Positions 1-61,009 of a stretch of 64,000 nt of DNA are shown piece after piece (the first letter of the stretch is position 1; every line of letters starts with the position of its first letter). The stretch is from the NCBI RefSeq assembly GCF_048403405.1, contig NZ_CP183129.1. The stretch is one strand, 5' to 3'. This stretch comes from Escherichia coli (lineage in GTDB: Bacteria > Pseudomonadota > Gammaproteobacteria > Enterobacterales > Enterobacteriaceae). The notes beneath the pieces are model-generated. The model saw nothing but the letters and a program-made list of their open reading frames with translations. It searched no databases and was not told the origin of the DNA. Both the position numbers and the translations under genes were made by a program.

Positions 1-370
1 GAATGTAGAAGAAAAATATTTCGATACCGTCCTGGCCGGACTGTGTGTGGGTTATGCCACCGAAAGACATGCGGGCACCAAAAAAGAGGTCTGCACCTGC
101 GTCGGCAATGTCGATTTACAGATGGGACGTGACCTGACAACCGTGCGTAAAGTCGTCGGATCCGGCGGATGGCTCTCGCGTGCCAGTCAGTTCGATATGC
201 ATCACTGGTTGAAATACCGCGAGTTAAACGACGACGGTAAACGCATTCTCTTACCGACCGAATTTGAATATTACCGCGATTCCCGGGGGCTATTACCACT
301 GCTGGCAAACGTCGCCAGAGTCGATCCGCTGGCCGCCGCGCGCACCAGTATTCAATGCTTAACCCTATAA
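1..370 (+). CDS. 5'-truncated CDS, probable glutamate mutase accessory component L (GlmL/MutL-like), C-terminal part
   Basis: Reading frame is open from window position 2 to the stop at 368-370; lies immediately upstream of the glmE-like gene as in known glmS-glmL-glmE operons; identity inferred from gene order, not from a recognised motif. Confidence 0.5.
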   Translation, partial: NVEEKYFDTVLAGLCVGYATERHAGTKKEVCTCVGNVDLQMGRDLTTVRKVVGSGGWLSRASQFDMHHWLKYRELNDDGKRILLPTEFEYYRDSRGLLPLLANVARVDPLAAARTSIQCLTL

Positions 371-388
371 CAATTAAGGCTGCAATCA

Positions 389-1834
389 ATGGAACTTCGA
401 AATAAGAAATTAACCCATGACGAATTCATGACCGAGCGGCAACAGGTACTGAAAACCTGGGAAACCGGCAAGGATGTTGAAAACTTTGAAGATGGCGTTA
501 AATACCAACAAACCATTCCTGAGCATAAACGCTTCTCTCTTGTGCTGTTGAAAGCAGACAAGGAAGGTAAAACCCTTAGCCAACCGCGCGCAGGTGTGGC
601 GCTGATGGACGAACACATCGAACTACTGAAAACACTACAAGAAGAGTGCGATCTGCTGCCGAGCACTATCGATGCATATACCCGTCTGAATCGGTACGAA
701 GAAGCGGCTGTAGGGATTAAAAAATCCATCGAAGCCGGAACCTCTAAACTGAACGGTTTACCGGTCGTTAACCACGGCGTCGCAGCTTGCCGTCGCCTCA
801 CCGAAACTTTGCAAAAACCGCTACAGATCCGCCACGGCACGCCAGATGCGCGTCTGCTGGCTGAAATCTCGATGTCCAGCGGCTTTACCAGTTATGAAGG
901 CGGCGGCATTTCCTACAATATTCCGTATGCCAAGCGCGTAACGCTGGAAAAATCGATCCGCGACTGGCAGTACTGCGACCGTTTAATGGGGATGTATGAA
1001 GAACACGGGATCCGCATCAACCGCGAACCGTTTGGCCCACTAACGGGTACGCTGATCCCGCCGTTTATCTCGCACTCTATCGCGATAATCGAAGGCTTGC
1101 TGGCGCTGGAACAGGGTGTGAAATCTATCACCGTTGGTTATGGACAGGTCGGCAGCCTGACGCAGGATGTTGCGGCGATCCAGTCTCTGCGTGAACTTGC
1201 ACACGAATATTTTCAGAGCTATGGCTATACCGACTATGAATTAAGTACCGTGTTTCACCAGTGGATGGGCGGCTTTCCGGAAGACGAATCGAAAGCGTTC
1301 GCTATTATCTCCTGGGGCGCAGCCGTCGCGGGGATGTCTGGTGCCACCAAAGTCATCACCAAAAGTCCGCACGAAGCCTGGGGTATCCCGACTGCCGCTG
1401 CCAACATTCAGGGGCTGAAAGCCTCCCGCCAGATGCTCAACATGGTCAACGAGCAGAAATTCCCGCCGTGCCCTGCGGTTGAACTGGAAATTGAACTGAT
1501 TAAGAGCGAGGTTCGCGCGGTACTGAATAAAGTGTTCGAACTGGGTAATGGTGATATTGCGCGCGGTACGGTGCTGGCATTTGAAGCGGGCGTACTGGAT
1601 GTGCCGTTTGCGCCAGCCGCCTGCAACGCGGGCAAAATTCTTCCGGTCCGTGACAACACCGGCGCGATACGCGTACTGGAAGCCGGAGCCGTTCCATTGC
1701 CAAAAGATATTCTCGACCTCCACCACGATTACGTTGCGGAACGCGCACGCTTTGAAGGACGCCAACCGACATTCCAGATGGTTGTAGATGACATCAATGC
1801 TGTATCCCACAGTAAATTAATAGGAAGACCATAA
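389..1834 (+). CDS. glmE: glutamate mutase epsilon (E) subunit, coenzyme B12-dependent methylaspartate mutase
   Basis: 481 aa ORF; N-terminus MELRNKKLTHDEF...PRAGVALMDEH resembles GlmE as I recall it; followed by methylaspartase with overlapping stop/start. Confidence 0.8.
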   Translation: MELRNKKLTHDEFMTERQQVLKTWETGKDVENFEDGVKYQQTIPEHKRFSLVLLKADKEGKTLSQPRAGVALMDEHIELLKTLQEECDLLPSTIDAYTRLNRYEEAAVGIKKSIEAGTSKLNGLPVVNHGVAACRRLTETLQKPLQIRHGTPDARLLAEISMSSGFTSYEGGGISYNIPYAKRVTLEKSIRDWQYCDRLMGMYEEHGIRINREPFGPLTGTLIPPFISHSIAIIEGLLALEQGVKSITVGYGQVGSLTQDVAAIQSLRELAHEYFQSYGYTDYELSTVFHQWMGGFPEDESKAFAIISWGAAVAGMSGATKVITKSPHEAWGIPTAAANIQGLKASRQMLNMVNEQKFPPCPAVELEIELIKSEVRAVLNKVFELGNGDIARGTVLAFEAGVLDVPFAPAACNAGKILPVRDNTGAIRVLEAGAVPLPKDILDLHHDYVAERARFEGRQPTFQMVVDDINAVSHSKLIGRP

Positions 1835-3075
1835 TGAAAATAAAACAGGCTCTGTTCACCGCTGGCTACTCCTCATTCTATTTCGATGACCAGCAGGCGA
1901 TAAAAAACGGAGCGGGTCACGACGGTTTTTTTTATACCGGGGAGCCGGTAACACAGGGGTTTAACGCCGTTCGTCAGGCCGGGGAGTGCGTATCGGTACA
2001 GTTGATTCTGGAAAACGGCGCGGTCGCCGTAGGTGACTGTGCTGCCGTACAGTATTCCGGGGCAGGTGGTCGCGATCCACTGTTCCTCGCAGAGCACTTT
2101 ATTCCGTTCCTCAACGACCATATCAAGCCATTACTGGTAGGCCGCGATGTGGATGCTTTCCTGCCGAATGCCCGTTTCTTCGACAAATTGCGTATTGACG
2201 GCAACTTGCTGCATACCGCCGTGCGCTACGGATTATCACAGGCGCTGCTTGATGCTACCGCGCTGGCAACCGGCCGTCTGAAAACTGAAGTGGTCTGTGA
2301 TGAATGGCAGTTGCCACGCGTGGCGGAATCCATTCCATTATTTGGTCAGAGCGGCGACGATCGATATATCGCCGTCGATAAGATGATCCTTAAGGGCATC
2401 GACGTGCTGCCCCATGCGCTGATTAATAACGTCGAAGAGAAGCTGGGCTTTAAAGGTGAAAAACTGCGCGAATATGTCCGCTGGCTGTCGGATCGTATTC
2501 TGAGCAAGCGCACCAGCGCACGCTACCACCCTACCCTGCACATCGATGTATACGGCACTATCGGTCTGATCTTCGATATGGATCCGCTTCGCTGTGCGCA
2601 ATACATCGCCAGCCTGGAAAAAGAAGCGCAAGGCCTGCCGCTCTACATTGAAGGGCCGGTCGATGCTGGTAACAAGCCCGATCAAATTCGCCTGCTGACC
2701 GCGATTACCAAAGAGCTGACACGCCTCGGTTCCGGCGTGAAAATTGTGGCCGATGAATGGTGTAACACCTACCAGGATATTGTTGATTTCACAGATGCCG
2801 CCAGTTGCCACATGGTGCAAATCAAAACCCCGGATCTGGGCAGTATTCACAACATCGTCGATGCGGTTCTTTACTGCAACAGCCACAGCATGGAAGCGTA
2901 CCAGGGCGGCACCTGCAATGAAACTGATGTCAGTGCCCGCACCTGTGTCCACGTCGCCCTTGCCGCTCGCCCTATGCGTATGCTGGTAAAGCCAGGGATG
3001 GGCTTTGACGAAGGCCTCGATATCGTCTTCAACGAAATGAATCGTACTATCGCGCTGTTGCAGGCTAAGGATTAA
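1834..3075 (+). CDS. 3-methylaspartate ammonia-lyase (beta-methylaspartase)
   Basis: 413 aa, the expected size for methylaspartase (enolase superfamily); start ATG overlaps the glmE stop (TAATG at 1832-1836). Confidence 0.8.
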   Translation: MKIKQALFTAGYSSFYFDDQQAIKNGAGHDGFFYTGEPVTQGFNAVRQAGECVSVQLILENGAVAVGDCAAVQYSGAGGRDPLFLAEHFIPFLNDHIKPLLVGRDVDAFLPNARFFDKLRIDGNLLHTAVRYGLSQALLDATALATGRLKTEVVCDEWQLPRVAESIPLFGQSGDDRYIAVDKMILKGIDVLPHALINNVEEKLGFKGEKLREYVRWLSDRILSKRTSARYHPTLHIDVYGTIGLIFDMDPLRCAQYIASLEKEAQGLPLYIEGPVDAGNKPDQIRLLTAITKELTRLGSGVKIVADEWCNTYQDIVDFTDAASCHMVQIKTPDLGSIHNIVDAVLYCNSHSMEAYQGGTCNETDVSARTCVHVALAARPMRMLVKPGMGFDEGLDIVFNEMNRTIALLQAKD

Positions 3076-3078
3076 CAA

Positions 3079-4449
3079 ATGGCTCGTTCTTTTAAAGTCT
3101 TATCGCCAACGGCAATCCTCGGGTATGGATTCCCGGAAGAGAGCTTCCGTAAAGCGATGGCAGAATCGCCCGATCTGATCGCCGTTGATGCAGGCTCTTC
3201 CGATCCTGGCCCCCACTACCTCGGGGCGGGCAAACCGTTTACCGATCGCGCAGGGGTCAAGCGCGATCTGCGCTATATGATCACCGCAGGCGTGCAAAAT
3301 AATATACCGGTGGTGATCGGAACGGCTGGCGGTTCTGGTGCCGCACCACACCTGGAGTGGTGCCGAGAAATAATTCATGAGATTGCCCAGGAAGAGCACC
3401 TCTCGTTCTCAATGGCGCTGATCCCGGCAGACGTTGACAAAGCCATCGTCCACCAGGCGCTGGATAACGGCAAAATCACGGCGCTGGAGTTTGTCCCGCC
3501 GTTAACCCACGACGCGATTGACGAAAGTACGTATATCGTTGCGCAAATGGGCATCGAACCCTTCCAGCGGGCGCTGAAAGAAGGCGCGCAAGTGGTGCTG
3601 GGCGGGCGCGCTTACGACCCGGCCTGCTTTGCTGCGCTTCCGATCATGCAAGGCTTTGATGAAGGTCTGGCGCTGCATTGTGGGAAAATCCTTGAATGCG
3701 CGGCAATCGCCGCAACGCCCGGCTCAGGCTCTGACTGTGCGATGGGCATCATTGATGACAACGGCTTTACGCTGAAGACATTTAATCCGAAGCGTAAATT
3801 TACCGAAACGTCAGCGGCTGCACACACACTGTATGAGAAATCCGATCCCTACTTCCTGCCTGGACCTGGCGGCGTGTTGAACCTGAAAGGCTGCACATTT
3901 AAAGCGGTCAATGACAGCGAAGTGTACGTCAGCGGTTCTAAGCATGAAGAAACGCCGTATGCCCTGAAACTGGAAGGTGCGCGACGAGTGGGCTTCCGCT
4001 GTCTGACCATCGCAGGAACGCGCGACCCGATCATGATCGCCGGGATCGATAAAATCATCGATGAAGTCAAAACCAGCGTTTCGCGTAACCTGTCGCTCGA
4101 CGATGACAGCATTCGCATCAATTTCCACCTGTACGGCAAAAACGGGGTGATGGGAGACCATGAACCGATGCAAACTGCCGGGCATGAGCTGGGGATTGTC
4201 CTTGATGTAGTTGCACCGACCCAGGAAATTGCCAACAGCGTTTGCTCGCTGGTGCGCTCTACCATGCTGCACTACGGCTATGAAAACCGCATCGCTACCG
4301 CAGGTAATCTGGCGTTCCCGTTCTCCCCTTCTGATATCCAGGGCGGGCCGGTATACGAATTTTCCATATATCACCTGATTGAAGCCAACGACGCTCTGCG
4401 TTTTGATTTCCATATTGAACAGGTGACGCCAGAAGGAGTTCAGGCATGA
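3079..4449 (+). CDS. uncharacterised protein, AtuA/DUF1446-like family (function unknown)
   Basis: 456 aa ORF 3 nt after the methylaspartase stop; family assignment from memory of AtuA-like proteins, unverified. Confidence 0.55.
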   Translation: MARSFKVLSPTAILGYGFPEESFRKAMAESPDLIAVDAGSSDPGPHYLGAGKPFTDRAGVKRDLRYMITAGVQNNIPVVIGTAGGSGAAPHLEWCREIIHEIAQEEHLSFSMALIPADVDKAIVHQALDNGKITALEFVPPLTHDAIDESTYIVAQMGIEPFQRALKEGAQVVLGGRAYDPACFAALPIMQGFDEGLALHCGKILECAAIAATPGSGSDCAMGIIDDNGFTLKTFNPKRKFTETSAAAHTLYEKSDPYFLPGPGGVLNLKGCTFKAVNDSEVYVSGSKHEETPYALKLEGARRVGFRCLTIAGTRDPIMIAGIDKIIDEVKTSVSRNLSLDDDSIRINFHLYGKNGVMGDHEPMQTAGHELGIVLDVVAPTQEIANSVCSLVRSTMLHYGYENRIATAGNLAFPFSPSDIQGGPVYEFSIYHLIEANDALRFDFHIEQVTPEGVQA

Positions 4450-4763
4450 AACAGTCAATTGTCTCACTGGCGCAAGTCATTCGTTCGAAAAATGCCGGAC
4501 CTTACGAACTGGTTTTAGATATTTTATTTAAAACCAAAGAAAACTATGAGCGTGTCAAATCATCAGGGCAATTAACCCCAGAACTGATCGCGCGCTTATA
4601 TCATGTTGAACCTGACTTTATTCATCGTATTGTCTGGTTTGATCCTTCTAACGCAGTAAAAATCGTCATGCCACGAGATATTATCTCCGGGAATGTAGGT
4701 GACAATGATGTCTATGGTGCACAGCAACATGCACCTTTATTAAATATGAGTTTCGATTTGTAA
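4446..4763 (+). CDS. small uncharacterised protein, DUF4387-like partner of AtuA-like proteins
   Basis: 105 aa ORF; start ATG overlaps the upstream stop (ATGA at 4446-4449), indicating translational coupling. Confidence 0.5.
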   Translation: MKQSIVSLAQVIRSKNAGPYELVLDILFKTKENYERVKSSGQLTPELIARLYHVEPDFIHRIVWFDPSNAVKIVMPRDIISGNVGDNDVYGAQQHAPLLNMSFDL

Positions 4764-4923: not shown

Positions 4924-6204
4924 ATGAAGAAAATAAGTTTAACCACGATGATTCTTTTGGCGCTGGTACTTGGAATGATTATCGGCGTAGTGCTCAATAA
5001 CACTGCTTCACCGGAAACCGAAAAACTCTATGCGCAAGAAATATCGATATTCACGACGATTTTCTTACGACTGATAAAAATGATTATCGCTCCGTTAGTG
5101 GTCTCTACCCTGGTGGTAGGTATAGCTAAAATGGGCGATGCCAAAGCCCTTGGTCGTATTTTTTCTAAAACACTCTTTTTATTTATTTGCGCCTCATTGC
5201 TGTCAATTGCCTTAGGCTTGATAACAGTAAATTTCTTCATGCCAGGCACAGGAATTAATTTTGTTGCACACGGAGCCGAAACCACCGGAGTGGTCGCGTC
5301 AGAACCCTTTACGCTAAAAGTATTTATTTCGCATGCTTTCCCCACCAGCATTGTCGATGCCATGGCGCACAATGAAATTTTGCAAATCGTGGTGTTCTCA
5401 ATTTTCCTCGGCTGTAGCCTGACGGCGATTGGCGAGAAAGGCAGCGCCATCGTTCACGCCTTAGATTCGCTGGCACATGCCATGTTAAAGCTCACTGGCT
5501 ACGTCATGCTCTTCGCTCCCCTGACCGTATTCGCTGCTATTTCAGCATTGATTGCTGAACGAGGACTGGCAGTTATGGTGAGCGCCGGGATCTTTATGGG
5601 TGAATTTTATTTCACCATGTTATTACTTTGGGTGCTGCTTATCGGTCTGGCCATCGTTTATGTTGGCCCCTGCATCAGACGCCTGACCCGCGCCCTTTCG
5701 GAACCCGCCCTGCTGGCATTTACCACATCCAGTTCTGAAGCGGCTTTTCCGGGAACGCTTGAAAAACTGGAGCAATTTGGCGTTTCCCCCAAAATTGCCA
5801 GCTTTGTCTTACCCATTGGCTACTCATTTAATCTTGTTGGATCAATGGCCTACTGCTCCTTCGCCACAGTTTTCATCGCCCAGGCCTGCAATATCCATTT
5901 ATCCATCGGTGAGCAAATCACCATGCTGTTGATCCTGATGTTGACCTCGAAAGGAATGGCTGGCGTACCACGCGCCTCAATGGTGGTTATCGCCGCCACG
6001 CTCAACCAGTTCAATATTCCGGAAGCGGGGCTGATCTTGCTGATGGGCGTTGATCCGTTCCTTGATATGGGGCGTTCCGCGACAAACGTCATGAGCAACG
6101 CAATGGGCGCTGCGATGGTGAGTCGGTGGGAAGGCGAACATTTCGGCGAGGGTTGTCGGGGTAAAGCATTAAAACCCAATGAATCGAACGTTGCTCTGCC
6201 CTGA
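4924..6204 (+). CDS. sodium:dicarboxylate symporter family transporter (glutamate/aspartate or C4/C5-dicarboxylate:cation symporter-like)
   Basis: About 426 aa, highly hydrophobic multi-helix protein; GGAGG 5 nt upstream of the ATG at 4924 (longest ORF begins at 4903). Confidence 0.75.
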   Translation: MKKISLTTMILLALVLGMIIGVVLNNTASPETEKLYAQEISIFTTIFLRLIKMIIAPLVVSTLVVGIAKMGDAKALGRIFSKTLFLFICASLLSIALGLITVNFFMPGTGINFVAHGAETTGVVASEPFTLKVFISHAFPTSIVDAMAHNEILQIVVFSIFLGCSLTAIGEKGSAIVHALDSLAHAMLKLTGYVMLFAPLTVFAAISALIAERGLAVMVSAGIFMGEFYFTMLLLWVLLIGLAIVYVGPCIRRLTRALSEPALLAFTTSSSEAAFPGTLEKLEQFGVSPKIASFVLPIGYSFNLVGSMAYCSFATVFIAQACNIHLSIGEQITMLLILMLTSKGMAGVPRASMVVIAATLNQFNIPEAGLILLMGVDPFLDMGRSATNVMSNAMGAAMVSRWEGEHFGEGCRGKALKPNESNVALP

Positions 6205-6311: not shown

Positions 6312-7964
6312 ATGTCCAAACCATTTATCTGGCAAGAACCGTTTCTACAAAATAAAGACGGTACAGAATATACATTAATTAGCGATCAACATATTACAGT
6401 AACGGAATTAGACGGCGAAGAAGTAATAAAAATCGCTCCTGAAGCATTAACGCTGCTTGCCCGGCAGGCATTTTATGAAGCCTCTTTTTTCTTACGTTCC
6501 GCTCATTTGCAACAGGTCGCCAGCATTCTTAACGATCCGCAGGCCAGTAGTAATGATAAATACGTTGCGTTGCAGTTATTACGTAATGCTGAAGTCTCAG
6601 CAAAAGGGGTATTACCCAACTGTCAGGATACCGGCACCGCAACTATTGTTGCCAGTAAAGGGCAACAGATATGGACGGGAGGTAACGACGCTGAAGCCTT
6701 AAGCAAAGGCATTTACAGTACTTTCCAGGAAAATAACCTGCGCTTTTCACAAAATGCGCCGCTGGATATGTACACCGAAGTCAATACGCAAACCAATCTC
6801 CCGGCGCAGATTGATATCAGCGCTGTCGCTGGTGATGAGTACCATTTTCTCTGTATTAATAAAGGGGGCGGCTCTGCCAATAAAGCCGCGCTTTATCAGG
6901 AAACCAAATCCTTATTGCAACCAGAAAAACTGACCGCATTTTTAATCGAAAAAATGAAATCGCTGGGCACCGCTGCCTGCCCGCCTTACCACATCGCCTT
7001 TGTCGTCGGAGGGCTTTCAGCCGATCAAACCTTAAAAGTTGCCAAGCTGGCCTCAACGAAATATTACGACAATTTGCCCACCAGCGGAAACGAGCAAGGA
7101 CAAGCATTCCGTGATATTGAGCTGGAAAAAGTATTGCTCGAGGCCAGTCAGCAATTTGGTATTGGTGCGCAATTTGGAGGTAAATATTTCGCTCATGATA
7201 TTCGCGTCATTCGTCTGCCGCGTCACGGTGGCTCCTGCCCGATAGCTATGGCGCTCTCCTGTTCTGCCGATCGCAATATCAAAGCAAAAATTAACAAGCA
7301 CGGTATCTGGCTGGAAAAACTCGAACACAATCCGGGGCAATATATTCCAGCCTCACTGCGGGAAGAAAATCACGCGCAACATGTACAACTGGATCTAAAC
7401 CGTCCGTTGCGTGACGTGATGCAGGATCTCGCCAGATTACCGGTAGGCACCCGCGTGTCGTTAAGTGGTCCCATCGTAGTGGCACGCGATATCGCCCACG
7501 CCAAAATAAAAGCGCGGCTGGATAACGCCGAACCGATGCCGGATTACCTGAAGCATCATATTGTCTATTACGCTGGCCCGGCGAAAACACCGGAGAACAT
7601 GGCCTGCGGTTCACTGGGTCCAACCACGGGCGGTCGAATGGACGGTTATGTCGATACCTTCCAGGCGGCTGGCGGCAGTCTGGTGATGTTATCGAAAGGT
7701 AACCGCAGCCAGCAGGTCACCGATGCCTGTCACAAACATGGTGGCTTCAATCTGGGTAGTATTGGCGGTGCAGCTGCGTTACTGGCGCAAGAATATGTCA
7801 AAAGTCTGCGTTGCCTGGAATACCCGGAGCTGGGTATGGAAGCGGTGTGGATGATGGAAGTGGAAAATCTGCCCGCATTCATCCTGGTAGATGATAAAGG
7901 CAATAATTTCTTTAGTCAGTTTGAGCAGCAACACCGCTGCGCCAGTTGCCCTGCGGGACATTAA
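6312..7964 (+). CDS. fumD: class I fumarate hydratase family protein, probable mesaconase/fumarase (FumD-like)
   Basis: 550 aa, FumA/FumB-like length; C-terminal Cys-rich tail; located in the methylaspartate operon. Confidence 0.75.
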
Positions 7965-7973
7965 GGAAAATGA

Positions 7974-8576
7974 ATGGAAGCGCGAATTTCAACTGAACGG
8001 CATGTGCAGCGCCAGCAGAAATTGAAGGAACAGGTCGATACGCGCGTCGCGGCGGCGATAGAGAAAAAAGGGATTTTGATTGTTTTCACCGGCAATGGCA
8101 AAGGGAAATCCACTGCCGCGTTTGGTACTGTGACGCGCGCGGTGGGTCATGGCAAAACGGTGGGGGTTGCGCAGTACATCAAGGGGCAATGGGACAACGG
8201 CGAATACAACCTTCTCCAGCCGCTGGGGGTTGAGTTTCATATTATGGGAACCGGTTTTACCTGGGAGACACAGAACCGGCAAGCGGATATCGACGCGGCG
8301 AAAGAGGTCTGGTCGGAAAGCAAACGGATGCTGGCTGACAAGCGTTACGACTTAGTGGTGCTTGATGAGCTGACCTATATGCTGGCTTACCATTATCTGG
8401 ACACCGAAGAAGTGATCGCTTCTCTGCAAAACCGCCCGGCACAACAAAGTGTCATTGTCACCGGACGCGGTTGCCACAGTCAGATATTAAAAATGGCGGA
8501 TACGGTCAGCGAAATCCGCCCCGTCAAACATGCTTTTGATAACGGCATTCAGGCGCAGCCGGGTATCGACTGGTAA
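7974..8576 (+). CDS. corrinoid (cob(I)alamin) adenosyltransferase, BtuR/CobO-family paralog
   Basis: 200 aa with P-loop-like FTGNGKGKSTAAFG motif; close resemblance to E. coli BtuR (about 196 aa) as recalled. Confidence 0.8.
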   Translation: MEARISTERHVQRQQKLKEQVDTRVAAAIEKKGILIVFTGNGKGKSTAAFGTVTRAVGHGKTVGVAQYIKGQWDNGEYNLLQPLGVEFHIMGTGFTWETQNRQADIDAAKEVWSESKRMLADKRYDLVVLDELTYMLAYHYLDTEEVIASLQNRPAQQSVIVTGRGCHSQILKMADTVSEIRPVKHAFDNGIQAQPGIDW

Positions 8577-8609
8577 TAACTGCGCCTGGCATCCCGCCAG
8601 GCGCAGGTT

Positions 8610-9515
8610 TTACATCTCCTGCGGTACGACCGATTTCGCCAGCAACCATTCACGAAATTGCTGCAAGTGCGGCGAGTCAGACTTCTCTTCCTGCCACGTC
8701 ATAATAAAACGATTACCGGTACGAATAGGCACATCACAGGGAATCACCATATCGCCACTATCCAAATCATGTTGAATAGCGAACCGTGGTAACAGCGCCA
8801 CGCCGAGATTAGAGCGCACGGCGGCAATCAGCATTGAAAGCAAATCGAAACGTGGTCCGTTATTGACCAGCGGACTGCTAACGCCAGATAAAGCAAACCA
8901 CTCTTCCCAGCCAGTAATACGGGTGCTTTGATGCAGAAGTGGTAACTCAGTAAGCAGTTCTGCCACTGACAGTTTTTGATCGGACATTGCAAGCAAACTG
9001 CCGCTGCATACCGGCAAAATCTCCTCATCAAAGAGATATTCTACTTCCGCCCAGGGCGCGCAAAAATTTTCGCGCATAATGACAGCATCGTACTCCCGAT
9101 TAAGAAAATCGCCGTTATTAGCTAAAGAATGAATATTAACAATAATATCGGGATGTAACTTTGTGAATTCATGTAAATTTGGGATTAACCAGTGGGTACT
9201 AAAAGTAGGATTAACGGCAAGTTCAATAACCTGAACCGTAGGCTGCCAGGTCATAATGGTATTGGTATCGCGTTCCAGCTTATTTAATGTTTCTTTTACT
9301 ATCCCCAGGTAATACTTCCCTGCATCATTAAGAAAAATACGTTTTTTAGAGTGTGAAAATAACGGAGTATGTAAAAATTCCTCCAGCGCACTCACTTGTC
9401 TGAATACAGCACTTTGGGTTAACGCTAACTCCTCTGCCGCTCTGGTATAACTTTCATGACGTGCGACGACCTCAAAAGTCACCAGCAGCTCCGTTTTAGG
9501 TATTTTTCCTCGCAT
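8610..9515 (-). CDS. LysR-family transcriptional regulator
   Basis: 301 aa; N-terminal helix-turn-helix (LVTFEVVARHESYTRAAEELALTQSAVFRQVSALE) plus a substrate-binding-domain-sized C-terminus. Confidence 0.85.
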   Translation of the reverse strand: MRGKIPKTELLVTFEVVARHESYTRAAEELALTQSAVFRQVSALEEFLHTPLFSHSKKRIFLNDAGKYYLGIVKETLNKLERDTNTIMTWQPTVQVIELAVNPTFSTHWLIPNLHEFTKLHPDIIVNIHSLANNGDFLNREYDAVIMRENFCAPWAEVEYLFDEEILPVCSGSLLAMSDQKLSVAELLTELPLLHQSTRITGWEEWFALSGVSSPLVNNGPRFDLLSMLIAAVRSNLGVALLPRFAIQHDLDSGDMVIPCDVPIRTGNRFIMTWQEEKSDSPHLQQFREWLLAKSVVPQEM

Positions 9516-10080
9516 AATGCCGTCCCTTAAAAATAGTTTAAACCATCAAAAATACATTACTTATTACGAAGTAATGGTAACCAAAGCAGCAATAAATAAT
9601 TTATAAGAATCATGATTGACATTTATAACCCAGTAAGCCTGGCGTGACAAATATCTTAATCAGATAATAATAATCCGAAAAGCACAGCGCCTTTCGAATT
9701 ATCCGGAATCACATTAAGTGAAAATTATTAAATTGATATCATTTATCATATCTGTGGATATTATGATAAACAATCAACAAAGATTTTATTTTTGATTTAT
9801 AGCATATCCCTCTAAGAATTTTTGCGATGCTGCAATATCCGGGTAAAGACCCGATCCTGGCTGACAAATGGCACGACTTGACGATAAGCGGTGAACATCG
9901 CTTTTGTTGATTTACTTAACGCTACGGTCAAACGCTGGGAAGCCAGTGCATCAGGTAACGATTCGAAATTCGCCGTCGTTCTTATTCGTGGCTTGCGGTC
10001 GGTTGCGGCAATCCACAGTGGCTGTGGTCATGCAGTCAAGCCAGCGGTCAGATTTCGACCGTGGTTAACATTTAAGGCAT

Positions 10081-10179
10081 AAAAAAGGCCATCATACGAT
10101 GGCCAACCATGTCGAAACCGACAGCCCTTCGCCATTCCTGTAGAGGGAAGCGGCGAGGGCTATTTCTTATTACAGATAT
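10081..10179 (-). ncRNA. sdhX: 3'UTR-derived small RNA SdhX (RybD) at the end of the sdh-suc operon, with intrinsic terminator
   Basis: Lies immediately 3' of the sucD stop on the minus strand; ends in hairpin GGCCATCGTATGATGGCC followed by a T-run (plus strand 10081-10104); identity recalled from E. coli K-12. Confidence 0.5.
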
Positions 10180-11049
10180 TTATTTCAGAACAGTTTTCAG
10201 TGCTTCACCGATATCCGCCAGGCTGCGAACGGTTTTCACGCCTGCGGCTTCCAGAGCAGCGAATTTCTCATCCGCAGTCCCTTTTCCACCGGCAATGATC
10301 GCACCCGCGTGGCCCATACGTTTGCCTTTCGGCGCAGTCACACCAGCGATGTAACCCACAACAGGCTTGGTAACGTGCTCTTTGATGTACGCAGCCGCTT
10401 CTTCTTCAGCGCTACCGCCGATCTCACCGATCATCACGATCGCTTCGGTCTGCGGATCTTTTTCGAACATTTCGAGGATGTCGATAAAGTTAGAGCCAGG
10501 GATCGGGTCGCCGCCGATACCAACACAGGTCGACTGACCGAAACCGTAATCCGTGGTCTGTTTCACCGCTTCATAGGTCAGTGTACCGGAACGGGAAACG
10601 ATACCCACTTTACCCGGTTTGTGAATGTGACCAGGCTGGATACCGATTTTGCATTCACCCGGAGTGATAACGCCTGGGCAGTTCGGGCCGATCATGCGAA
10701 CGCCCGCTTCATCCAGTTTCACCTTCACGGTCAGCATATCCAGCGTCGGGATGCCTTCAGTGATGGTGATAATCAGTTTGATGCCTGCATCAATAGCTTC
10801 CAGAATGGAGTCTTTGCAGAACGGTGCTGGTACGTAGATAACAGAAGCGGTAGCGCCAGTAGCAGCAACAGCTTCACGCACGGTGTTGAACACCGGCAGG
10901 CCGAGGTGGGTGGTGCCGCCTTTACCTGGGGTTACGCCGCCAACCATTTTAGTGCCGTATGCAATGGCCTGTTCTGAGTGGAAAGTCCCCTGGCTACCGG
11001 TAAAGCCCTGGCAGATAACCTTGGTGTTTTTATCAATTAAAATGGACAT
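10180..11049 (-). CDS. sucD: succinyl-CoA synthetase alpha subunit
   Basis: 289 aa; [33 protein letters not shown]; canonical operon position. Confidence 0.96.
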
Positions 11050-12215
11050 TATTTCCCCTCCACTGCGGCAACAACCTGCTGAGCTGCATCCGTCAGACCT
11101 TTTGCTGCAATAATATTCAGGCCGCTGTCAGCCAGTTTCTTCGCGCCGAGTTCGGCGTTGTTACCTTCCAGACGTACCACGACCGGTACGTTAACACCCA
11201 CTTCCGCTACCGCGCCGATGATACCGTCAGCGATCAGGTCGCAACGAACGATACCGCCGAAGATGTTAACCAGAACGGCTTTCACTTTGTCGTCAGAGAG
11301 GATGATTTTGAACGCTTCGGTTACACGTTCTTTGGTTGCGCCGCCGCCAACGTCAAGGAAGTTAGCTGGTTCGCCGCCGTGCAGTTTAACGATGTCCATC
11401 GTACCCATCGCCAGACCTGCGCCGTTAACCATACAACCGATGTTACCGTCCAGCGCAACGTAGTTCAGTTCCCACTGTGCAGCCTGTGCTTCACGTGGAT
11501 CTTCCTGCGACTGGTCACGCATTTCGCGCAGATCAGGCTGGCGGAACAGTGCGTTGCCATCAGCGCCCAGTTTGCCGTCGAGGCAAATCAGATCGCCCTG
11601 TTTGGTGATGACCAGCGGGTTGATTTCGATCAGCGCCAGGTCGCGCTCCAGGAAAATGGTCGCCAGGCCCATGAAGATTTTGGTGAACTGCTGAACCAGT
11701 TTACCTTCCAGACCCAGTTTGAACGCCAGCTCGCGTCCCTGATACGGCATCGGGCCAGTCAGCGGATCAAGCGCAACTTTGTGGATCAGGTGCGGAGTTT
11801 CTTCCGCCACTTTTTCGATTTCCACGCCGCCTTCGGTGGAGGCCATAAAGACCACACGACGGGAACTACGGTCAACAACGGCACCGAGATACAGCTCTTT
11901 AGCGATATCGGTCGCTGCTTCAACCAGAATCTGGTTAACCGGTTGGCCATTGGCATCTGTTTGATACGTTACCAGACGCTTGCCCAGCCAGTTTTCTGCA
12001 AAAGCACGGATGTCTTCTTTGCTGTTTACAACTTTCACACCGCCCGCTTTACCGCGGCCACCAGCGTGAACCTGACATTTCACTACCCACGGACCGGCAC
12101 CGATTTTTGAAGCGGCTTCTTCTGCTTCGCGCGGAGTAGTACAGGCATAACCCACCGGTGCTGGTAAGCCATAGCGGGCAAAAAGTTGTTTTGCCTGATA
12201 TTCATGTAAGTTCAT
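11049..12215 (-). CDS. sucC: succinyl-CoA synthetase beta subunit
   Basis: 388 aa; [18 protein letters not shown]; stop overlaps the sucD start. Confidence 0.96.
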
Positions 12216-12254
12216 GTGTTCTGTCCATCCTTCAGTAATCGTTATCTTTTAAAC

Positions 12255-12286
12255 CGTAGACCGACACCCTATCCACGTCGGTCTAC
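12255..12286 (-). other. 10-bp perfect inverted repeat (RNA stem-loop) in the sucB-sucC intergenic region
   Basis: GTAGACCGAC...GTCGGTCTAC with an 11-nt loop, between the sucB stop and the sucC start. Confidence 0.5.
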
Positions 12287-12308
12287 AGTGCAGGTGAAGC
12301 TTAAACTA

Positions 12309-13526
12309 CTACACGTCCAGCAGCAGACGCGTCGGATCTTCCAGCAACTCTTTGATCGTTACCAGGAAGCCCACGGATTCGCGACCATCGATCAGACGGT
12401 GATCGTAGGACAGCGCCAGGTACATCATCGGCAGGATCTCAACCTGACCATTCACCGCCATCGGACGATCTTTGATAGCGTGCATACCCAGAATTGCGCT
12501 CTGCGGCGGGTTGATGATCGGCGTAGACATCAGGGAACCGAACACACCACCGTTGGTGATGGTGAAGTTACCACCGGTCAGATCTTCAACCGTCAGCTTG
12601 CCGTCACGGCCTTTAACTGCCAGCTCTTTGATTTTCTTCTCGATGTCTGCCATGCCTAGGGTATCGACATCACGCAGTACCGGCGTCACCAGGCCGCGCG
12701 GCGTAGAAACCGCCATGCTGACGTCGAAATAGTTGTGGTAAACCACATCATCGCCGTCGATAGACGCGTTCACTTCCGGGTAACGTTTCAGGGCTTCAAC
12801 CACCGCTTTCACGTAGAAGGACATAAAGCCCAGACGAATACCGTGACGTTTTTCAAACGCTTCACCGTACTGCTTACGCAGATCCATAATCGGCTTCATG
12901 TTGACTTCGTTGAACGTGGTCAGCATAGCGGTGGAGTTTTTCGCTTCCAGCAGACGCTCTGCCACACGCTTACGCAGGCGAGTCATCGGGACACGTTTTT
13001 CGCTACGTGCAGCCAGAGCCGGTTGCGCCGCCGGAGCAGCCGCTGCCGGAGCAGACTCTTTCGCCGGGGCTTTCGCCAGATGTTTTTCCACATCTTCACG
13101 AGTCAGACGACCACCCACACCGGTGCCTTTAATGGCGCTGGCGTCGAGGTTGTGTTCAGCCAGCAGGCGACGGATCGCCGGGCTTAACGCATCGTTGTTT
13201 TGCTCTTCCAGAGACGCCTGCTGGCGTTGCGCCGGAGTGGACGCTTTCTCTTCAGATTTGGCGCTGGTTTCTTTACCGGCGCTGTTGCCTTCACGCAGGC
13301 GACCAAGGATCTGACGAGACGTTACCGTTGTACCTTCATCTTCCAGAACCGCATCCAGAATGCCGTCTGCTGATGCCGGTACTTCCAGTACCACTTTGTC
13401 AGTTTCGATTTCTACCAGCACTTCATCACGTACGACTGCGTCGCCGGGTTTTTTATGCCAGGTTGCGACGGTGGCATCGGCTACGGATTCAGGCAGGTCA
13501 GGGACCAGAATATCTACGCTACTCAT
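12309..13526 (-). CDS. sucB: 2-oxoglutarate dehydrogenase E2 (dihydrolipoyl succinyltransferase)
   Basis: 405 aa; lipoyl domain and Ala/Pro-rich linker. Confidence 0.96.
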
Positions 13527-13540
13527 TGTGTATCCTTTAT

Positions 13541-16342
13541 TTATTCGACGTTCAGCGCGTCATTAACCAGATCTTGTTGCTGTTTCTGGTGAACGGACAT
13601 ATACCCTACCGCCGGAGAGGCGGAGGCCGGGCGGCCTGCATAACGCAGAGAAGCCCCAAACGGAATCACTTCACGGAAATGATGCTGGCTGCAGTACCAT
13701 GCGCCCTGGTTGAGCGGCTCTTCCTGGCACCAGACAAAATCCTTGACGTGAGCAAACTGCTGCAACACTTCCTGCATCGCTTTATGCGGGAACGGGTAGA
13801 GTTGCTCGATACGCACAATGGCGACATCGTGTTGATTGTTCTTACGGCGTTGTTCCAACAGGTCGTAATAAACCTTACCAGAACACATCACTACGCGCTT
13901 CACACCCTTCGGATCAAGCTCGTCGATTTCACCAATGGCAGGCAGGAAGGTGCCGTTCGCCAGTTCTTCGAGGCTGGAAACCGCCAGCGGATGACGCAGC
14001 AGGGATTTCGGCGACATCACGACCAGCGGACGACGCATCCCGCGCAGCGCCTGACGACGCAGCATGTGGTAAACCTGTGCCGGGGTAGACGGTACGCACA
14101 CCTGCATGTTTTGCTCAGCACAAAGTTGCAGATAACGTTCCAGACGCGCGGAGGAGTGCTCCGGCCCCTGCCCTTCGTAACCGTGCGGCAGCAACATCAC
14201 CAGACCACACATCCGGCCCCATTTCTGTTCGCCAGAGGAGATGAACTGGTCGATAACCACCTGAGCACCGTTAGCGAAGTCACCGAACTGTGCTTCCCAG
14301 ATAGTCAGAGTGCGTGGTTCTGCGGTGGCATAACCGTATTCAAACGCCAGCACGGCTTCTTCTGACAGTACGGAGTCCCAGACACGAAACGCGCCCTGAC
14401 CGTTATGGATGTGTTGCAGCGGCGTGTAAGTGGAACCGTTAGACTGGTTGTGGATCACCGCGTGGCGGTGGAAGAAGGTACCGCGACCGGAGTCTTCACC
14501 CGACAGGCGAACCGGAATGCCTTCGTCAACCAGCGTGGCGTAAGCGAGGTTTTCCGCGCCGCCCCAGTCGAACAGTTTCTCACCAGCTGCCATCGCCTGG
14601 CGATCGCCATAAATCTTGGCAACGCGAGACTGCATTTCAACTGCTTCCGGCACCGTGCTGATGCGTTTAGCCAGTTCCTGCAGGCGCTTCATCTCAACTT
14701 TGTTCGGGTACTCTTCGTCCCATTCGTGGTTGAGGTACGGCGACCAGGTGAAAGAGTGCATGTTCATCGGACGCCACTCTGCCACTACGCAATCGCCAGC
14801 ATCCAGCGCATCGCGGTACAGGTTAACCATCTCGGTGGCATCTTCGAGCGTCGCCACTTTTTCTTGCTCCAGCTTGTCAGCGTAGATTTTGCGCGGCGTC
14901 GGATGTTTTTTGATTTTCTGATACATCAGCGGCTGGGTTGCGCTCGGCTCGTCGGCTTCGTTGTGGCCATGACGGCGGTAGCACACCAGGTCGATGAAGA
15001 CATCACGTTTAAAGGTGTTACGGAAATCGAGCGCCAGACGGGTCACAAAGGCAACGGCTTCCGGATCATCCGCGTTAACGTGGAAAATCGGTGCCTGAAC
15101 CATCTTACCGATATCAGTACAGTACGGCGTCGAACGGGCATCCAGCGGGTTAGAGGTGGTGAAGCCAACCTGGTTGTTGATAACGATACGTACCGTACCG
15201 CCAACTTCATAGCCACGCGCTTTCGACATGTTCAGGGTTTCCTGAACCACGCCCTGCCCGGTCACTGCGGCGTCACCGTGGATGGTAATTGGCAGCACTT
15301 TGTTGCTGCTCGGCTCATCAAGTCTGTCCAGACGGGCACGAACAGAACCGATAACGACCGGGCTTACAATCTCAAGGTGAGACGGGTTAAACGCCAGCGC
15401 CAGGTGTACCAGGCCGCCATCGGTCTGGAAGTCAGACGAGAAGCCCATGTGGTATTTCACGTCACCCGTGCCGAGGTGTTCTTTATGTTTACCGGCAAAC
15501 TCGTCGAACAAGTCTTGCGGTTTTTTACCCAGCACGTTCACCAGCACGTTCAGACGACCACGGTGCGCCATCCCAAGAACCACTTCGCGGGTGCCGCTGT
15601 TGCCAGCGTGGCGGATCATCTCTTTAAGCATCGGGATTAACGCGTCACCGCCTTCCAGCGAGAAGCGTTTTGCACCAGGGAATTTTGCACCGAGGTAACG
15701 TTCAAGGCCTTCAGCGGCGGTCAGTTCGCTTAAGAAGCGTTTTTTCTCTTCGCTATTGAAAGTCGCGCGACCAGACTCGATACGCTGTTGGATCCAGCGT
15801 TTTTCTTCGGTGCTGGTAATATGCATATACTCGGCGCCAATCGGGCCGCAGTAGGTTTGCTTGAGTGCTTCCAGCAGTTCGCCGAGTTTCATGGTTTCTT
15901 TGCCGCTGGCAAATGAACCGACGTTGAAGGTCTCCTGGAAGTCTGCTTCGGTCAGATCGTGGAAAGACGGATCCAGATCGGCCACTTTATCTTGCTGCCA
16001 CAGTCCCAGCGGATCGAGATTCGCATGCTGGTGACCACGGAAGCGGTATGCGTTAATGAGCTGCAGGACTTTAACCTGCTTCACATTGGTGTCAGGGTCG
16101 GAGATCGTTGAAGAGTAACGTGAAGCGTCTTTCGCCAGGCGGCGGAAATATTCACGCGTTTGAGAGTGGAATTGATCCGGTTTGACTCCCGTACCAGGTA
16201 ACTGCTGGAACGTCGAACGCCAGTTAGCGTCAACCGAGTCAGGATCGGTTAAGAAGTCTTCATAGAGCTGTTCTATCCAGCTCTGGTTTGCGCCAGAGAG
16301 GTAAGAAGAGTCCAACCAGGCTTTCAAAGCGCTGTTCTGCAT
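13541..16342 (-). CDS. sucA: 2-oxoglutarate dehydrogenase E1 component
   Basis: 933 aa; [31 protein letters not shown]. Confidence 0.96.
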
Positions 16343-16506
16343 CGTGATCCCTTAAGCATCTTTTTTATGCTTACTTCGCCGTGGATACTACCACGCACAG
16401 TGATGTGCGTGCCGGGGTTCACTTGCGAGCTCTTGTCTACGTAGTGGCTCGCGAAGGAACCTTTAAAAACTGTCTTAGTGTCAGGGGCAGTTTTTAAAGA
16501 TTTCCT

Positions 16507-16691
16507 GCATTTCTTTTGTAGGCCGGATAAGGCATTCACGCCGCATCCGGCGCTGTTTGCCTGATGCGACGCTTGCGCGTCTTATCAGGCCTACGATTTC
16601 TGCATTTCTTTTGTAGGCCGGATAAGGCGTTCACGCCGCATCCGGCACTGGTTGCCTGATGCGACGCTTGTGCGTCTTATCAGGCCTGGGT
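16507..16691. repeat. two tandem REP/BIME-type palindromic units (about 95 bp each) between sucA and sdhB
   Basis: Near-identical direct copies beginning GCATTTCTTTTGTAGGCCGGATAAGGC...GCCTGATGCGACGCTTG.GCGTCTTATCAGGCCT at 16507 and 16602. Confidence 0.75.
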
Positions 16692-17408
16692 TTACGCATT
16701 ACGCTGCAACAACATCGACTTGATATGGCCGATGGCGCGCGTCGGGTTCAGCCCCTTCGGACATACACTGACGCAGTTCATGATGCTGTGACAGCGGAAT
16801 ACACTGAATGCATCGCTCAAACCGTCGAGGCGGCTGTCAGTCTCGGTATCACGGCTATCGATCAGGAAACGATATGCCGCTAACAAGCCTGCCGGGCCGA
16901 TAAACTTATCGGGATTCCACCAGAAAGACGGACAAGAGGTTGAACAACATGCGCAGAGAATACATTCATACAACCCGTCGAGTTTTTCGCGCTGCTCTGG
17001 CATCTGTAAATGCTCGCGAGCTGGCGGATTTTGTCCATTATTCAACAGGTAAGGCTTAATTTTCTCATATTGCGCATAGAATTGTCCCATGTCTACCACC
17101 AAATCGCGGATCACCGGTAAACCTGGCAGCGGGCGAATCACAATCTTCTTGCCTGGCTGGTTGAGTGCCGAAATCGGGGTAATACAGGCCAGACCATTCT
17201 TGCCGTTCATGTTCAGACCGTCGGAACCGCACACACCTTCACGGCAGGAGCGGCGGAACGACAGGCTGGGATCTTTCTCTTTCAGCTGGATAAGCGCATC
17301 CAGCAGCATCATGTCACGACCTTCTTCCGCTTCCAGGGTGTAATCCTGCATACGCGGAGCATCATCAACATCCGGGTTATAGCGATAAATTGAAAACTCG
17401 AGTCTCAT
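16692..17408 (-). CDS. sdhB: succinate dehydrogenase iron-sulfur subunit
   Basis: 238 aa; Cys clusters. Confidence 0.96.
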   Translation of the reverse strand: MRLEFSIYRYNPDVDDAPRMQDYTLEAEEGRDMMLLDALIQLKEKDPSLSFRRSCREGVCGSDGLNMNGKNGLACITPISALNQPGKKIVIRPLPGLPVIRDLVVDMGQFYAQYEKIKPYLLNNGQNPPAREHLQMPEQREKLDGLYECILCACCSTSCPSFWWNPDKFIGPAGLLAAYRFLIDSRDTETDSRLDGLSDAFSVFRCHSIMNCVSVCPKGLNPTRAIGHIKSMLLQRNA

Positions 17409-36057: not shown

Positions 36058-36906
36058 TTAATCCTGTTGTAGCAGGACAAGATTACGAAAGCGCGCTCCC
36101 CGCAAGGACTGACGCCAGATAGTTTCTGTCCATGGCTGCCCTTTCCATTCAAACGTGAAATCAATAAGTTCATCAGGGACACCGCAAACAATATGAAGAC
36201 GGATTTCTTCTCTGCCGTGACTCTTTTCACTCATTGCGAAACTGTCATGCTCTGGATTATTTAATTCTTTCAGTGGGAATTTTTCCTCAAAGGCTTTATT
36301 AAGCCGTCCCTGATTTCCTTTTACAGCGAATAAATAATCACCGCCCTGTTTTTGTATCTTCTCTGCGATATCTTTCTGGCAACCCATCGCATCAGTTGTG
36401 ATAATTTTTCCTTTAATATCCAACATGTTAAGAAGTTCAGGGATAGCTGTGATCTCATTGGATTTCTCATCCGTCCTGATCTGTCCGATGACCAGACTGT
36501 GCATTGTTGAGAACGCACTAATGACATGAATCGCTCCCCTGCGGCGACTCTTGTCATAAGAATGCCGGAGCGTTTTTCCATCAATTGCAATAACGTCTTT
36601 ATCATCTGAAGAATGGCAGTCACGCATCCAGTTAATAAAGCACTCGTGAAATTTTGCAGGACTGATACAGGATACAACTCTGGCAATGGTATCGTGAACA
36701 GGAATACCATTTTCAAAATCACCATATTGCTTCAAAAAATCGAGATGTGTTTCCCCAAAATCCTCTATATCTTCCCAGCCTTCTGCACCAGAAATAACGG
36801 CACAAATAGTCAACAGTAGAATATCCGACAATTTATGTTCCACTTTCCAGGCTTGTCTGTAATCGGGGATAATAGAAATATGTTCCATCAATTTTTTAAG
36901 TTCCAT
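36058..36906 (-). mobile_element. ybfD: H-repeat-associated (ISAs1-family) transposase gene, 3'-truncated remnant
   Basis: 282 aa ORF with N-terminus [51 protein letters not shown] typical of H-rpt proteins; homology ends after ...FTFEWKG, then an unrelated short tail (full-length proteins are about 378 aa as recalled). Confidence 0.8.
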
Positions 36907-37013
36907 TTTGTTCTCCTTAATTATGTAAAGAGTATTTGATCATGTATACGCAATAAAAAACAGCTTCAGGTAATGAGGAATATCTCAATTTTTAAACATA
37001 AAATGCGAATTAC

Positions 37014-37593
37014 TTAGTACAAAAAGTGTACTTCTGATGATCTTTCCCTGTCCTTGGCACCATCATTTTTTGACGCTTCAAAAATACTACTACAAGTGAG
37101 TTTAGAAAACTCTTTTCCAGATAATTCTCCAGGTTGTAATCCTCCGCCGCCAAAAATCCTACTCCCAGGATTTCCATACCTATTTAGAGCATATGAATAG
37201 CAATTATTTACGGCAAGATAATACGCATCTGAATTTAGTTCTCGATTGAATACTGGAGCAGGTTTATCAATTAAGCCCAGCGGATCAATAGAATAGGTTG
37301 GATGTATGGAAGCATATACATACTGATTCCACCCGCCTTCCAGCCCAATCGGTTCCTGAGTGATATACCGCCCCTGCAGCGGGTCATAATAGCGGTGGCG
37401 GTTGTAATACAGGCCGGACTCCTCATCATACTGCTGCCCCGGCAGACGGATAAGCTGCTGCAGGTGCTGCGGGTTCTCTTCAGTCAGCAGGTTGCCCCAT
37501 TCATCATATTCTGCGCACCATTCTGTTGCCCCGTCAGGGCTGATAAGCGTCAGCGGCAGGCCGCGATAGTCGCAGTGGTAGAGGTGGATTATT
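37014..37593 (-). pseudogene. orphan rhs core-end plus alternative C-terminal toxin (CT) fragment, no start codon
   Basis: Minus-strand translation gives ...[12 protein letters not shown]...[46 protein letters not shown] then a unique tail ending ...SSEVHFLY, stop at 37014-37016; 37340-37600 is a near-identical DNA repeat of 38690-38950 inside the main rhs gene. Confidence 0.75.
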
Positions 37594-37623
37594 CGCAGTG
37601 GTAGAGGTGGATTATTCGCAGTG
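37571..37623. repeat. 23-bp tandem direct repeat (2 copies plus a partial third) at the 5' edge of the orphan rhs fragment
   Basis: CGCAGTGGTAGAGGTGGATTATT at 37571-37593 and 37594-37616, then CGCAGTG. Confidence 0.9.
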
Positions 37624-37706
37624 ATCTATATGCCAACGTCATCTTATTTTTCATCTACTCCAACGAGTAGACAAGTTTTTTATTAAACCATTTATACCTT
37701 TTACGA

Positions 37707-38210
37707 TTAAATTTTCTTATGTAATAGAGGTGAATAATCTTCCCAAAAATCCATACAAGCTTTACTTGCATAAAAGAATCCAGCGTCTGATTCATAAGAC
37801 ATAAACTGTGCAATAATAGATAGTTGTATATCTGAAAAATTAAAAACAAAATTCAAAAAATCATCGTGATCCCGATACTCAGGACATAAATATTGTTGAA
37901 TAAAATCGGATTCAAAAACCCAAAAATCATTCTTATTAAACAACGAGGCATAAATATACAGAGGGATGTAATAGCAGAATACTTTCTCAGGGAGGAATGT
38001 AATTCCTAACTCTAAAGCATAAGAGTCATCCTTTATTTTAAAATTGTTGGCTATTTCATTCCATTGTTTCTTTTGGAAAAAATTATATACAATATCCAGT
38101 TCCTCCAGCCCTGTAATATCATTTGAAATATGAGGTAATGGCTGGCATGGGAAATGAATCATAAGTTCATCATAGACTGCACTCTCGTTAGAGAAAATTA
38201 TTTTTTTCAT
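37707..38210 (-). CDS. candidate Rhs immunity protein (RhsI-like), cognate to the main Rhs toxin tip
   Basis: 167 aa from [16 protein letters not shown]; its ATG overlaps the rhs stop (ATGA at 38207-38210); low-GC, no signal peptide; position directly 3' of the toxin gene. Confidence 0.6.
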
Positions 38211-42358: not shown

Positions 42359-42545
42359 CTGCTCATCCTTGTTTTATCGGGTTATTTGTCTGCTGACAGG
42401 CGAAACCCTACAGATTTATAAGAAAGCCTTAAGTGAGATATCTGTCAGATAAGAACAATTAGGAAAATATTTATATATATTTCATGAATATATGTTTCGA
42501 TTGGTATAACGGTGTCTAAATATTCCTCTGAACATCTTCCTGATA

Positions 42546-61008: not shown

Positions 61009-61009
61009 T

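Follow-up and report, generated by a model that had tools for sequence, protein, structure and literature searches.

Salmonella CobA (PDB 1G5R, 1G5T, 1G64 and 4HUT) and Escherichia coli BtuR (b1270) are the housekeeping CobA-type ATP:co(I)rrinoid adenosyltransferases. E. coli also has EutT, whose gene adjoins the reactivase gene eutA in the eut operon of K-12. Kronen & Berg 2015 (PMC4682846; Fig 5) include a further CobA in the gene cluster that they draw for enterobacterial glutamate fermentation; their study biochemically characterised the product of the adjacent gene, FumD/ECs0757, as a mesaconase/fumarase. According to the same authors, O157:H7 ATCC 700728 did not grow on glutamate and had no methylaspartase activity, and they found no condition that induced the cluster (PMC4682846).

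The gene analysed here belongs to this cluster. It lies in a stretch of 64,000 nucleotides of E. coli DNA, called the window below, the first 25 kb of which are 100% identical to E. coli MS 69-1 and to several other human isolates. Its open reading frame (7974-8576, + strand) runs from an ATG to a TAA codon and encodes 200 aa, and the 603-nt coding sequence called by PGAP in the identical genomes coincides with it exactly. The counterpart in strain Sakai, ECs_0756, has the same position and neighbours, specifies an identical protein (200/200 residues) and is annotated as a cob(I)alamin adenosyltransferase; the two genes differ by 6 synonymous nucleotides, the window coming from a different, MS 69-1-like lineage. 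A search of the literature on ECs0755-0764, and on FumD and methylaspartate after 2015, returned nothing on the island cobA beyond Kronen & Berg. The gene is already annotated and published, hence already known, and in that sense ordinary. The additions of the present analysis are its prevalence, its linkage, its position in a separate clade, its dN/dS and a residue signature.

Organization of the island and its surroundings

The gene order is glmS-glmL-glmE-mal-atuA-DUF4387-symporter-fumD-cobA, followed by a convergent LysR gene. The window opens within glmL and therefore leaves out glmS and the remainder of glmL; in the identical genome of MS 69-1, both are full-length and intact by annotation. 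The features within the window are as follows.

1..370, + strand: 3' end of glmL, mutase accessory/reactivase-like (TIGR01319 match to the C-terminal part)
389..1834, + strand: glmE, AdoCbl-dependent glutamate (methylaspartate) mutase subunit E (TIGR01503, 863.5 bits against a cut-off of 390)
1834..3075, + strand: mal, methylaspartate ammonia-lyase (TIGR01502, 543.9 bits against a cut-off of 286)
3079-4449, + strand: AtuA/DUF1446 protein, 456 aa (PGAP name, Pfam PF07287)
4446-4763, + strand: DUF4387 protein, 105 aa, overlapping the AtuA gene (PGAP name, Pfam PF14330)
4924..6204, + strand: dicarboxylate/amino acid:cation symporter, GltP/DctA-like (profile match and PGAP annotation)
6312..7964, + strand: fumD, class I fumarase/mesaconase, 550 aa (NF011921, 1284 bits against a cut-off of 1060)
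7963..7967, + strand: Shine-Dalgarno-like AAGGA overlapping the fumD stop, 6 nt 5' of the ATG (read from the sequence)
7974..8576, + strand: island-type cobA/cobO, 200-aa ATP:co(I)rrinoid adenosyltransferase of the CobA/CobO/BtuR family (reading frame, family profiles, BtuR and CobA alignments)
8580..8606, + strand: terminator-like hairpin with an 11-bp G+C-rich stem followed by GUUUUA, between the convergent cobA and LysR genes
8610..9515, - strand: LysR-family regulator, convergent and conserved beside the island (profile match, synteny, annotation)

In MS 69-1, the cluster sits between cydA and sucD, and none of its genes is flagged as a pseudogene. K-12 carries mngR-mngA-mngB at the same chromosomal site, so the cluster is a true accessory island. 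The original prediction placed cobA directly downstream of the mesaconase gene, and this description is accurate: only 9 nt separate the fumD stop from the cobA ATG, and the upstream fumarase is 99% identical to the characterised FumD/ECs0757. No promoter-like site was found on the + strand between 6312 and 7974, that is, inside fumD. The hairpin between cobA and the LysR gene begins 4 nt after the cobA stop, folds at -25 kcal/mol (z -6.3) and was equalled by none of 200 shuffled sequences (0/200). Judged from these sequence features, cobA is probably co-translated and co-transcribed with fumD, and would be the last gene of a fumD-cobO transcription unit.

A scan of the whole island with Rfam, in a genome with the identical genes (L001, 7700-22300, E <= 0.1), yielded no cobalamin riboswitch and no other element, and the annotation of the island contains no microcompartment genes. 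The pair formed by AtuA/DUF1446 and DUF4387, neither of which has an NCBIfam match, is present at 84-92% identity in all 13 syntenic loci of other species described below and in Salmonella. These two genes are annotated in Sakai as '3-methylaspartate ammonia-lyase' and 'acyl-CoA synthetase'; according to Kronen & Berg, the ammonia-lyase label was given to the DUF1446 gene 'for unknown reason' (PMC4682846). Both proteins may account for the fate of mesaconate or citramalate.

Several features of the surrounding sequence can be recorded alongside the island. The intergenic stretch between the LysR gene and sucD (9516-10180) is A+T-rich, with about 38% GC; K-12 has the sRNA SdhX annotated immediately after sucD, and the Rfam scan over the L001 counterpart of this intergenic region reported nothing. 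An RHS element core protein gene of about 4.1 kb occupies, with its neighbours, about 36100-42400 (-) between ybfA and ybgA; beside it are a small downstream ORF, a partial RHS fragment and a truncated ISAs1-family transposase (ybfD). After glnS, at about 59000-64000, there follow a DeoR regulator, D-threonate 4-phosphate dehydrogenase, dtnK (D-threonate kinase) and an iron-containing alcohol dehydrogenase, which looks like another accessory sugar-acid cluster.

Flavodoxin FldA is the electron donor for Salmonella CobA. Its gene is found in the same 64-kb window as the island, at about 54784-55314 (+), within ybfE-fldA-fur; as fldA is a core gene and lies 46 kb away, this proximity is a coincidence.

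Family membership, active site and clade-specific residues

Membership of the CobA/CobO/BtuR family, as originally proposed, was fully borne out. The island protein scores 246.6 bits with NCBIfam TIGR00708 (cobA; curated cut-off 167.75) and 295.6 bits with NF004637 (curated cut-off 185), and it covers the whole of Pfam PF02572 CobA_CobO_BtuR (1-172/172, 6e-64), with a weak match to the N-terminal helix family PF12557. PF02572 and PF12557 were the only Pfam matches, and homology to EutT or PduO was not found. A P-loop NTPase other than CobA was considered and rejected, PRK07414 giving 76.9 bits against a cut-off of 248. In pairwise alignments, which the original prediction had proposed, the protein shares 67% identity and 83% similarity with K-12 BtuR across all 196 residues, and matches Salmonella CobA over its full length (PDB 1g5r_A, E 2.5e-88, query 6-200 on chain residues 2-196, gapless); PDB 4hut was also matched. 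Salmonella CobA numbering, used from here on unless the query is named, equals query numbering minus 4.

Three segments of the gene carry the central motifs of the active site.

8085..8126, + strand: P-loop segment FTGNGKGKSTAAFG, residues 38-51 of the island protein, with Salmonella T42 replaced by Ser
8256..8264, + strand: F95-T96-W97 codons, containing Salmonella F91 and W93, invariant in all 81 island and core sequences
8364..8369, + strand: D131-E132 codons, Salmonella D127/E128, a Walker-B-like acidic pair, invariant in island and core proteins

The 200-aa protein does contain the predicted P-loop, whose core GNGKGKST corresponds to residues 40-47, and disruption of the ATP-binding residues was not seen, P-loop and D127/E128 both being intact. 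Retained are G36-N-G-K-G-K41, T43, F91, W93, D127/E128, R161, K181/H182 and D195. The sole P-loop difference, T42S, is conservative; all island-type proteins compared have Ser here (14/14 and 121/121), as do 59/143 representatives of the wider family. We take the P-loop GNGKGK(T/S)T and the acidic pair D127/E128 to bind MgATP. Phe91 and Trp93, which are reportedly important in Salmonella CobA, to go by the title of work by Moore et al. from 2012, are presumably aromatic residues of the corrinoid site, and R161 and H182 are grouped here with that site.

In an alignment of 14 island and 67 core proteins, 80 of 201 columns are invariant, including GNGKGK, F91, W93, D127/E128, R161, K181/H182 and D195, and the residues invariant in island and core proteins are the same as those conserved across 150 family representatives. 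K39, K41, D127 and E128 are found in 136-137 of 139-143 representatives (D127/E128 in 137/139), while query F95, W97, R165 and H186 (Salmonella F91, W93, R161 and H182) are invariant in the 81 sequences and dominant family-wide. Family membership together with the catalytic residues confirms that this is a real, intact and well-conserved CobA-type adenosyltransferase gene.

The island proteins also differ consistently from the core proteins. This was followed in the 14 island and 67 core proteins, in a set of 121 island-type proteins (the window protein plus 120 cluster representatives) and in the 150 family representatives. Besides four extra N-terminal residues relative to the core, S42, D70, Y74, I102 and Y121 are fixed in 14/14 and 121/121 island proteins; four of these correspond to P70D, R74Y, T102I and L121Y when compared with the core. 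K28, H85, I86 and G88 are fixed in the 14, and among the 121, position 28 is K in 92 and R in 29, and position 85 is H in 119 and Y in one.

Position 165 also separates the two groups, with Arg in 67/67 core proteins and Ala (8), Ser (5) or Thr (1) in the 14 island proteins; A, S or T is found in 117/121 of the larger set, and Arg in none. R9 and R165 of Salmonella CobA are reportedly flavodoxin-docking residues (Buan & Escalante-Semerena 2005). Nevertheless, loss of Arg165 as a functional change was downgraded to a clade marker, position 165 being highly variable across the 150 representatives (P35, R21, E19, A16 and others among the 141 counted). S42, H85, I102 and Y121 are common states in the wider family, R9 is retained in the island proteins, and no difference in net charge or pI, which could have hinted at altered docking to the acidic flavodoxin, was found between the two groups (Mann-Whitney p 0.75). 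The signature is for these reasons best read as the history of an old, separate lineage, and as a sign of a changed partner it is weak.

Distribution, relatives and selection

Among 5426 complete E. coli genomes, island cobA was present in 1121 and core btuR in 5422; PGAP uses the name cobO for both genes alike. As btuR is in place in 5422/5426 genomes, the possibility that the island gene is a relocated btuR was rejected. For glmE the count is 1131 (1121 when >=80% coverage is required), and the 8.2 kb from glmE to cobO are contiguous in 1118. From these counts it follows that in E. coli the island cobA travels only with the island. The original prediction of a second adenosyltransferase holds insofar as this is a second CobA-type enzyme; with eutT counted, it is the third adenosyltransferase gene of E. 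coli. One of the 1122 records with the island bears a plasmid label and one genome contains two copies, which may reflect a mislabelled replicon or a duplication.

In a scan of relatives limited to one genome per species, identity to the window protein was bimodal: 13 loci encode proteins of 200 aa at 80-86%, and all others fall at or below 71%. The 13 island-type loci come from Citrobacter (eight), Buttiauxella (two), Lelliottia, Klebsiella michiganensis and a Raoultella MAG, and all 13 have glmL-glmE-mal-atuA-DUF4387-symporter-fumD upstream and a convergent LysR gene downstream. The 66 lower-identity loci all show the core context yciK-btuR-rluB/sohB, whereas yciK, rluB and sohB are absent from all 14 island-type loci, where glm, mal and fumD are found instead. 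Both copies, island cobA and yciK-linked btuR, coexist in 9 of the 13 genomes. A wider protein search added 120 island-type clusters at 83-100% identity from Citrobacter, Enterobacter, Salmonella and relatives. The island proteins are monophyletic in 200/200 bootstraps of a neighbour-joining tree, and they share 65-71% identity with all core enterobacterial BtuR proteins. The sequence relationships indicate that island cobA is an old, separate lineage and no recent duplicate of btuR.

Salmonella enterica keeps the gene order of the island at the same sucD-side site, in a layout that agrees with Fig 5 of Kronen & Berg (PMC4682846). Its island contains genes additional to those of E. coli (L090/L091, 7244-8245 and 11993-14845): a glutaminase between symporter and fumD and, after the LysR gene, a SumT-like TP_methylase, a PocR-domain AraC regulator, a small SBD_N fragment and an Asp/Glu racemase. 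With only 665 bp between the LysR gene and sucD, the E. coli window suggests a trimmed island.

A more distant relative was found in Morganella morganii (L062). Its cobA product (196 aa, 69% identity) joins the island clade in 190/200 bootstraps and keeps R165, and the gene is preceded by symporter and fumD. The region 6573-17112 comprises symporter, fumD, cobA, a LoiP-like fragment and a LysR gene beside cobT-cobC-cobS-...-cbiP, and no glm or mal genes lie within 10 kb of the fumD-linked cobA. The fumD-cobA pair may originally have stood in a context like this one. Because Morganella cobA stands without nearby glm genes, the tightest conserved partners of the gene are fumD and the symporter, not the mutase.

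The gene is under strong purifying selection. Pairwise comparisons within the island clade gave a median dN/dS of 0.05, where the core copies of these genomes gave 0.03; synonymous sites were near saturation. Within E. coli, four divergent alleles lie 4, 6, 8 and 17 nt from the window gene and carry 0, 0, 0 and 1 amino-acid changes, respectively, so that 35 nucleotide differences in total amount to one replacement; the three alleles with 4-8 synonymous changes share accession WP_000388207.1. The reading frame is full length, at 200 aa, in 14/14 island loci. As a side observation, strain CFSAN018748 carries a frameshift in its LysR gene, and the fumD frame of strain 15.TR.026_OXA is interrupted by a stop codon, cobO being intact in both; LysR gene and fumD are both intact in the window itself.

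Proposed role, alternatives and comparison with known systems

Considered together with its neighbours, the gene is rather more probably than otherwise an active CobA-type adenosyltransferase that serves the island glutamate mutase, as the last gene of a methylaspartate-pathway island. That the protein is an active CobA-type enzyme at all is, judging by its sequence, very probable. What the analysis establishes is that the protein belongs to the family and keeps its catalytic residues, and that the gene is linked to the island and under purifying selection; we infer its enzymatic activity, its co-expression and its dedication to the mutase. Island CobA would be made together with FumD and the mutase; it would take MgATP into the P-loop, bind a reduced corrinoid and move the 5'-deoxyadenosyl group to the cobalt, yielding adenosylcobalamin. 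This activity would supply AdoCbl to the AdoCbl-dependent glutamate mutase (GlmS/GlmE) of the island and sustain re-adenosylation, with GlmL as a reactivase that would release damaged cofactor for renewed adenosylation by island CobA. Both would take place when the pathway served, which leads from glutamate through methylaspartate and mesaconate to citramalate, is induced.

The original prediction had the island carry its own adenosyltransferase to guarantee cofactor supply, and took this to support a functional mutase upstream. The idea of an own adenosyltransferase agrees with the linkage to glmE, with the synteny in 13 species and Salmonella, and with purifying selection despite a core copy, and a dedicated cofactor supply is plausible by analogy with eutA/eutT. 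As for the mutase, island cobA is no proof that it functions, since Kronen & Berg found no condition under which O157:H7 expresses the cluster. Against a dedicated role count this failure to detect expression in O157:H7, the presence of btuR in nearly every carrier, and of eutT in E. coli too, the Morganella cobA tied to fumD and a cob operon rather than to glm, and the lack of a B12 riboswitch in the island by Rfam scan. The sporadic decay of other island genes (LysR, fumD) also weighs against the favoured explanation.

Alternatively, the gene could be a functional but redundant passenger, the general-purpose CobA of a donor, which arrived with the island, adds to BtuR and has no special relationship to the mutase. 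The age and separateness of the island clade, with its 65-71% identity to core BtuR and 200/200 bootstrap support, would fit such an origin, as would the family-wide frequency of S42, H85, I102 and Y121, the near-universal btuR of E. coli, and the place of the Morganella relative beside a cobalamin biosynthesis operon, as expected of a housekeeping cobA. A redundant gene should decay, however, and dN/dS is instead about 0.05 in genomes that have the core copy; changes within E. coli are almost all synonymous, and the E. coli gene is never found apart from its island. Purifying selection in genomes already equipped with BtuR argues against a neutral passenger and equally against a relic, and we regard the redundant donor gene as possible but doubtful. 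An inactive relic or mis-called ORF, decaying in a silent island, might be suspected because expression of the island has never been seen in O157:H7 and because some strains have the LysR frameshift or the internal stop in fumD. Yet the 200-aa frame persists in 14/14 loci with all catalytic residues intact, selection is strong and WP_000388207.1 recurs in alleles that differ only synonymously; the conservation data effectively refute this explanation already, and we give it hardly any credence.

Two further readings assign the island lineage a specialised function. A sub-functionalised adenosyltransferase might use a reductant other than FldA, hand AdoCbl to GlmS/GlmL, or prefer another cobamide. 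The split at position 165 (Arg throughout the core, A/S/T in 14/14 island proteins, never Arg in the 121), the four core-to-island replacements fixed in 121/121 and the reported flavodoxin-docking role of R9 and R165 point in this direction. Against these stand the high variability of position 165 in the family, where the island state may be lineage history, the retention of R9 and the equal charge and pI of island and core proteins, and we judge this sub-functionalisation to be quite improbable. Slightly less so, but still unlikely, is a distinct pathway-dedicated subfamily, a CobA-type counterpart of EutT/PduO that recycles the mutase cofactor with GlmL and is not interchangeable with BtuR. 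If that were the case, S42, D70, Y74, I102, Y121 and the missing Arg165 may mark a changed partner interface, for a non-FldA reductant or for AdoCbl hand-off to GlmS.

On the favoured reading, an adenosyltransferase serving the island mutase, island cobA would complete a self-contained AdoCbl module of mutase, GlmL and adenosyltransferase. Its carriers include about a fifth of E. coli, O157:H7 among them, and many Citrobacter, Enterobacter and Salmonella strains. Strong purifying selection despite BtuR and EutT speaks for a use of the island somewhere in nature, and this selection signal makes it worth an experimental revisit. The significance of the gene is otherwise modest, with nothing new for B12 biology unless the clade-specific surface changes are functional; a non-redundant, partner-specific role, if true, would be the route to greater interest.

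Compared with Salmonella CobA and BtuR, the alignment implies the same fold and length for the island protein, with the P-loop GNGKGK(S/T)T, the catalytic residues and the R9 helix in common, whereas its separate clade, 4 additional N-terminal residues and own signature set it apart. Unlike the core yciK-btuR-rluB locus, the gene resides in an accessory catabolic island beside fumD. The fumD-linked cobA of Morganella morganii has the symporter-fumD-cobA order and a nearby LysR gene in common with the island, but differs in its 69% identity, 196 aa, R165 and position beside cobT/cobC/cobS/cbiP. EutT and PduO belong to unrelated protein families, the island is without microcompartment genes, and a dedicated role of island CobA is something that we infer. 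The likeness to these systems is one of gene arrangement: glmS, glmL, glmE and cobO are co-oriented in one cluster, kept in 13 species and Salmonella, in which an adenosyltransferase gene is placed inside an AdoCbl-enzyme cluster with a reactivase (eutA/eutT in K-12, glmL/cobA here). The island follows the logic of pduGH and pduO, but with a CobA-type enzyme.
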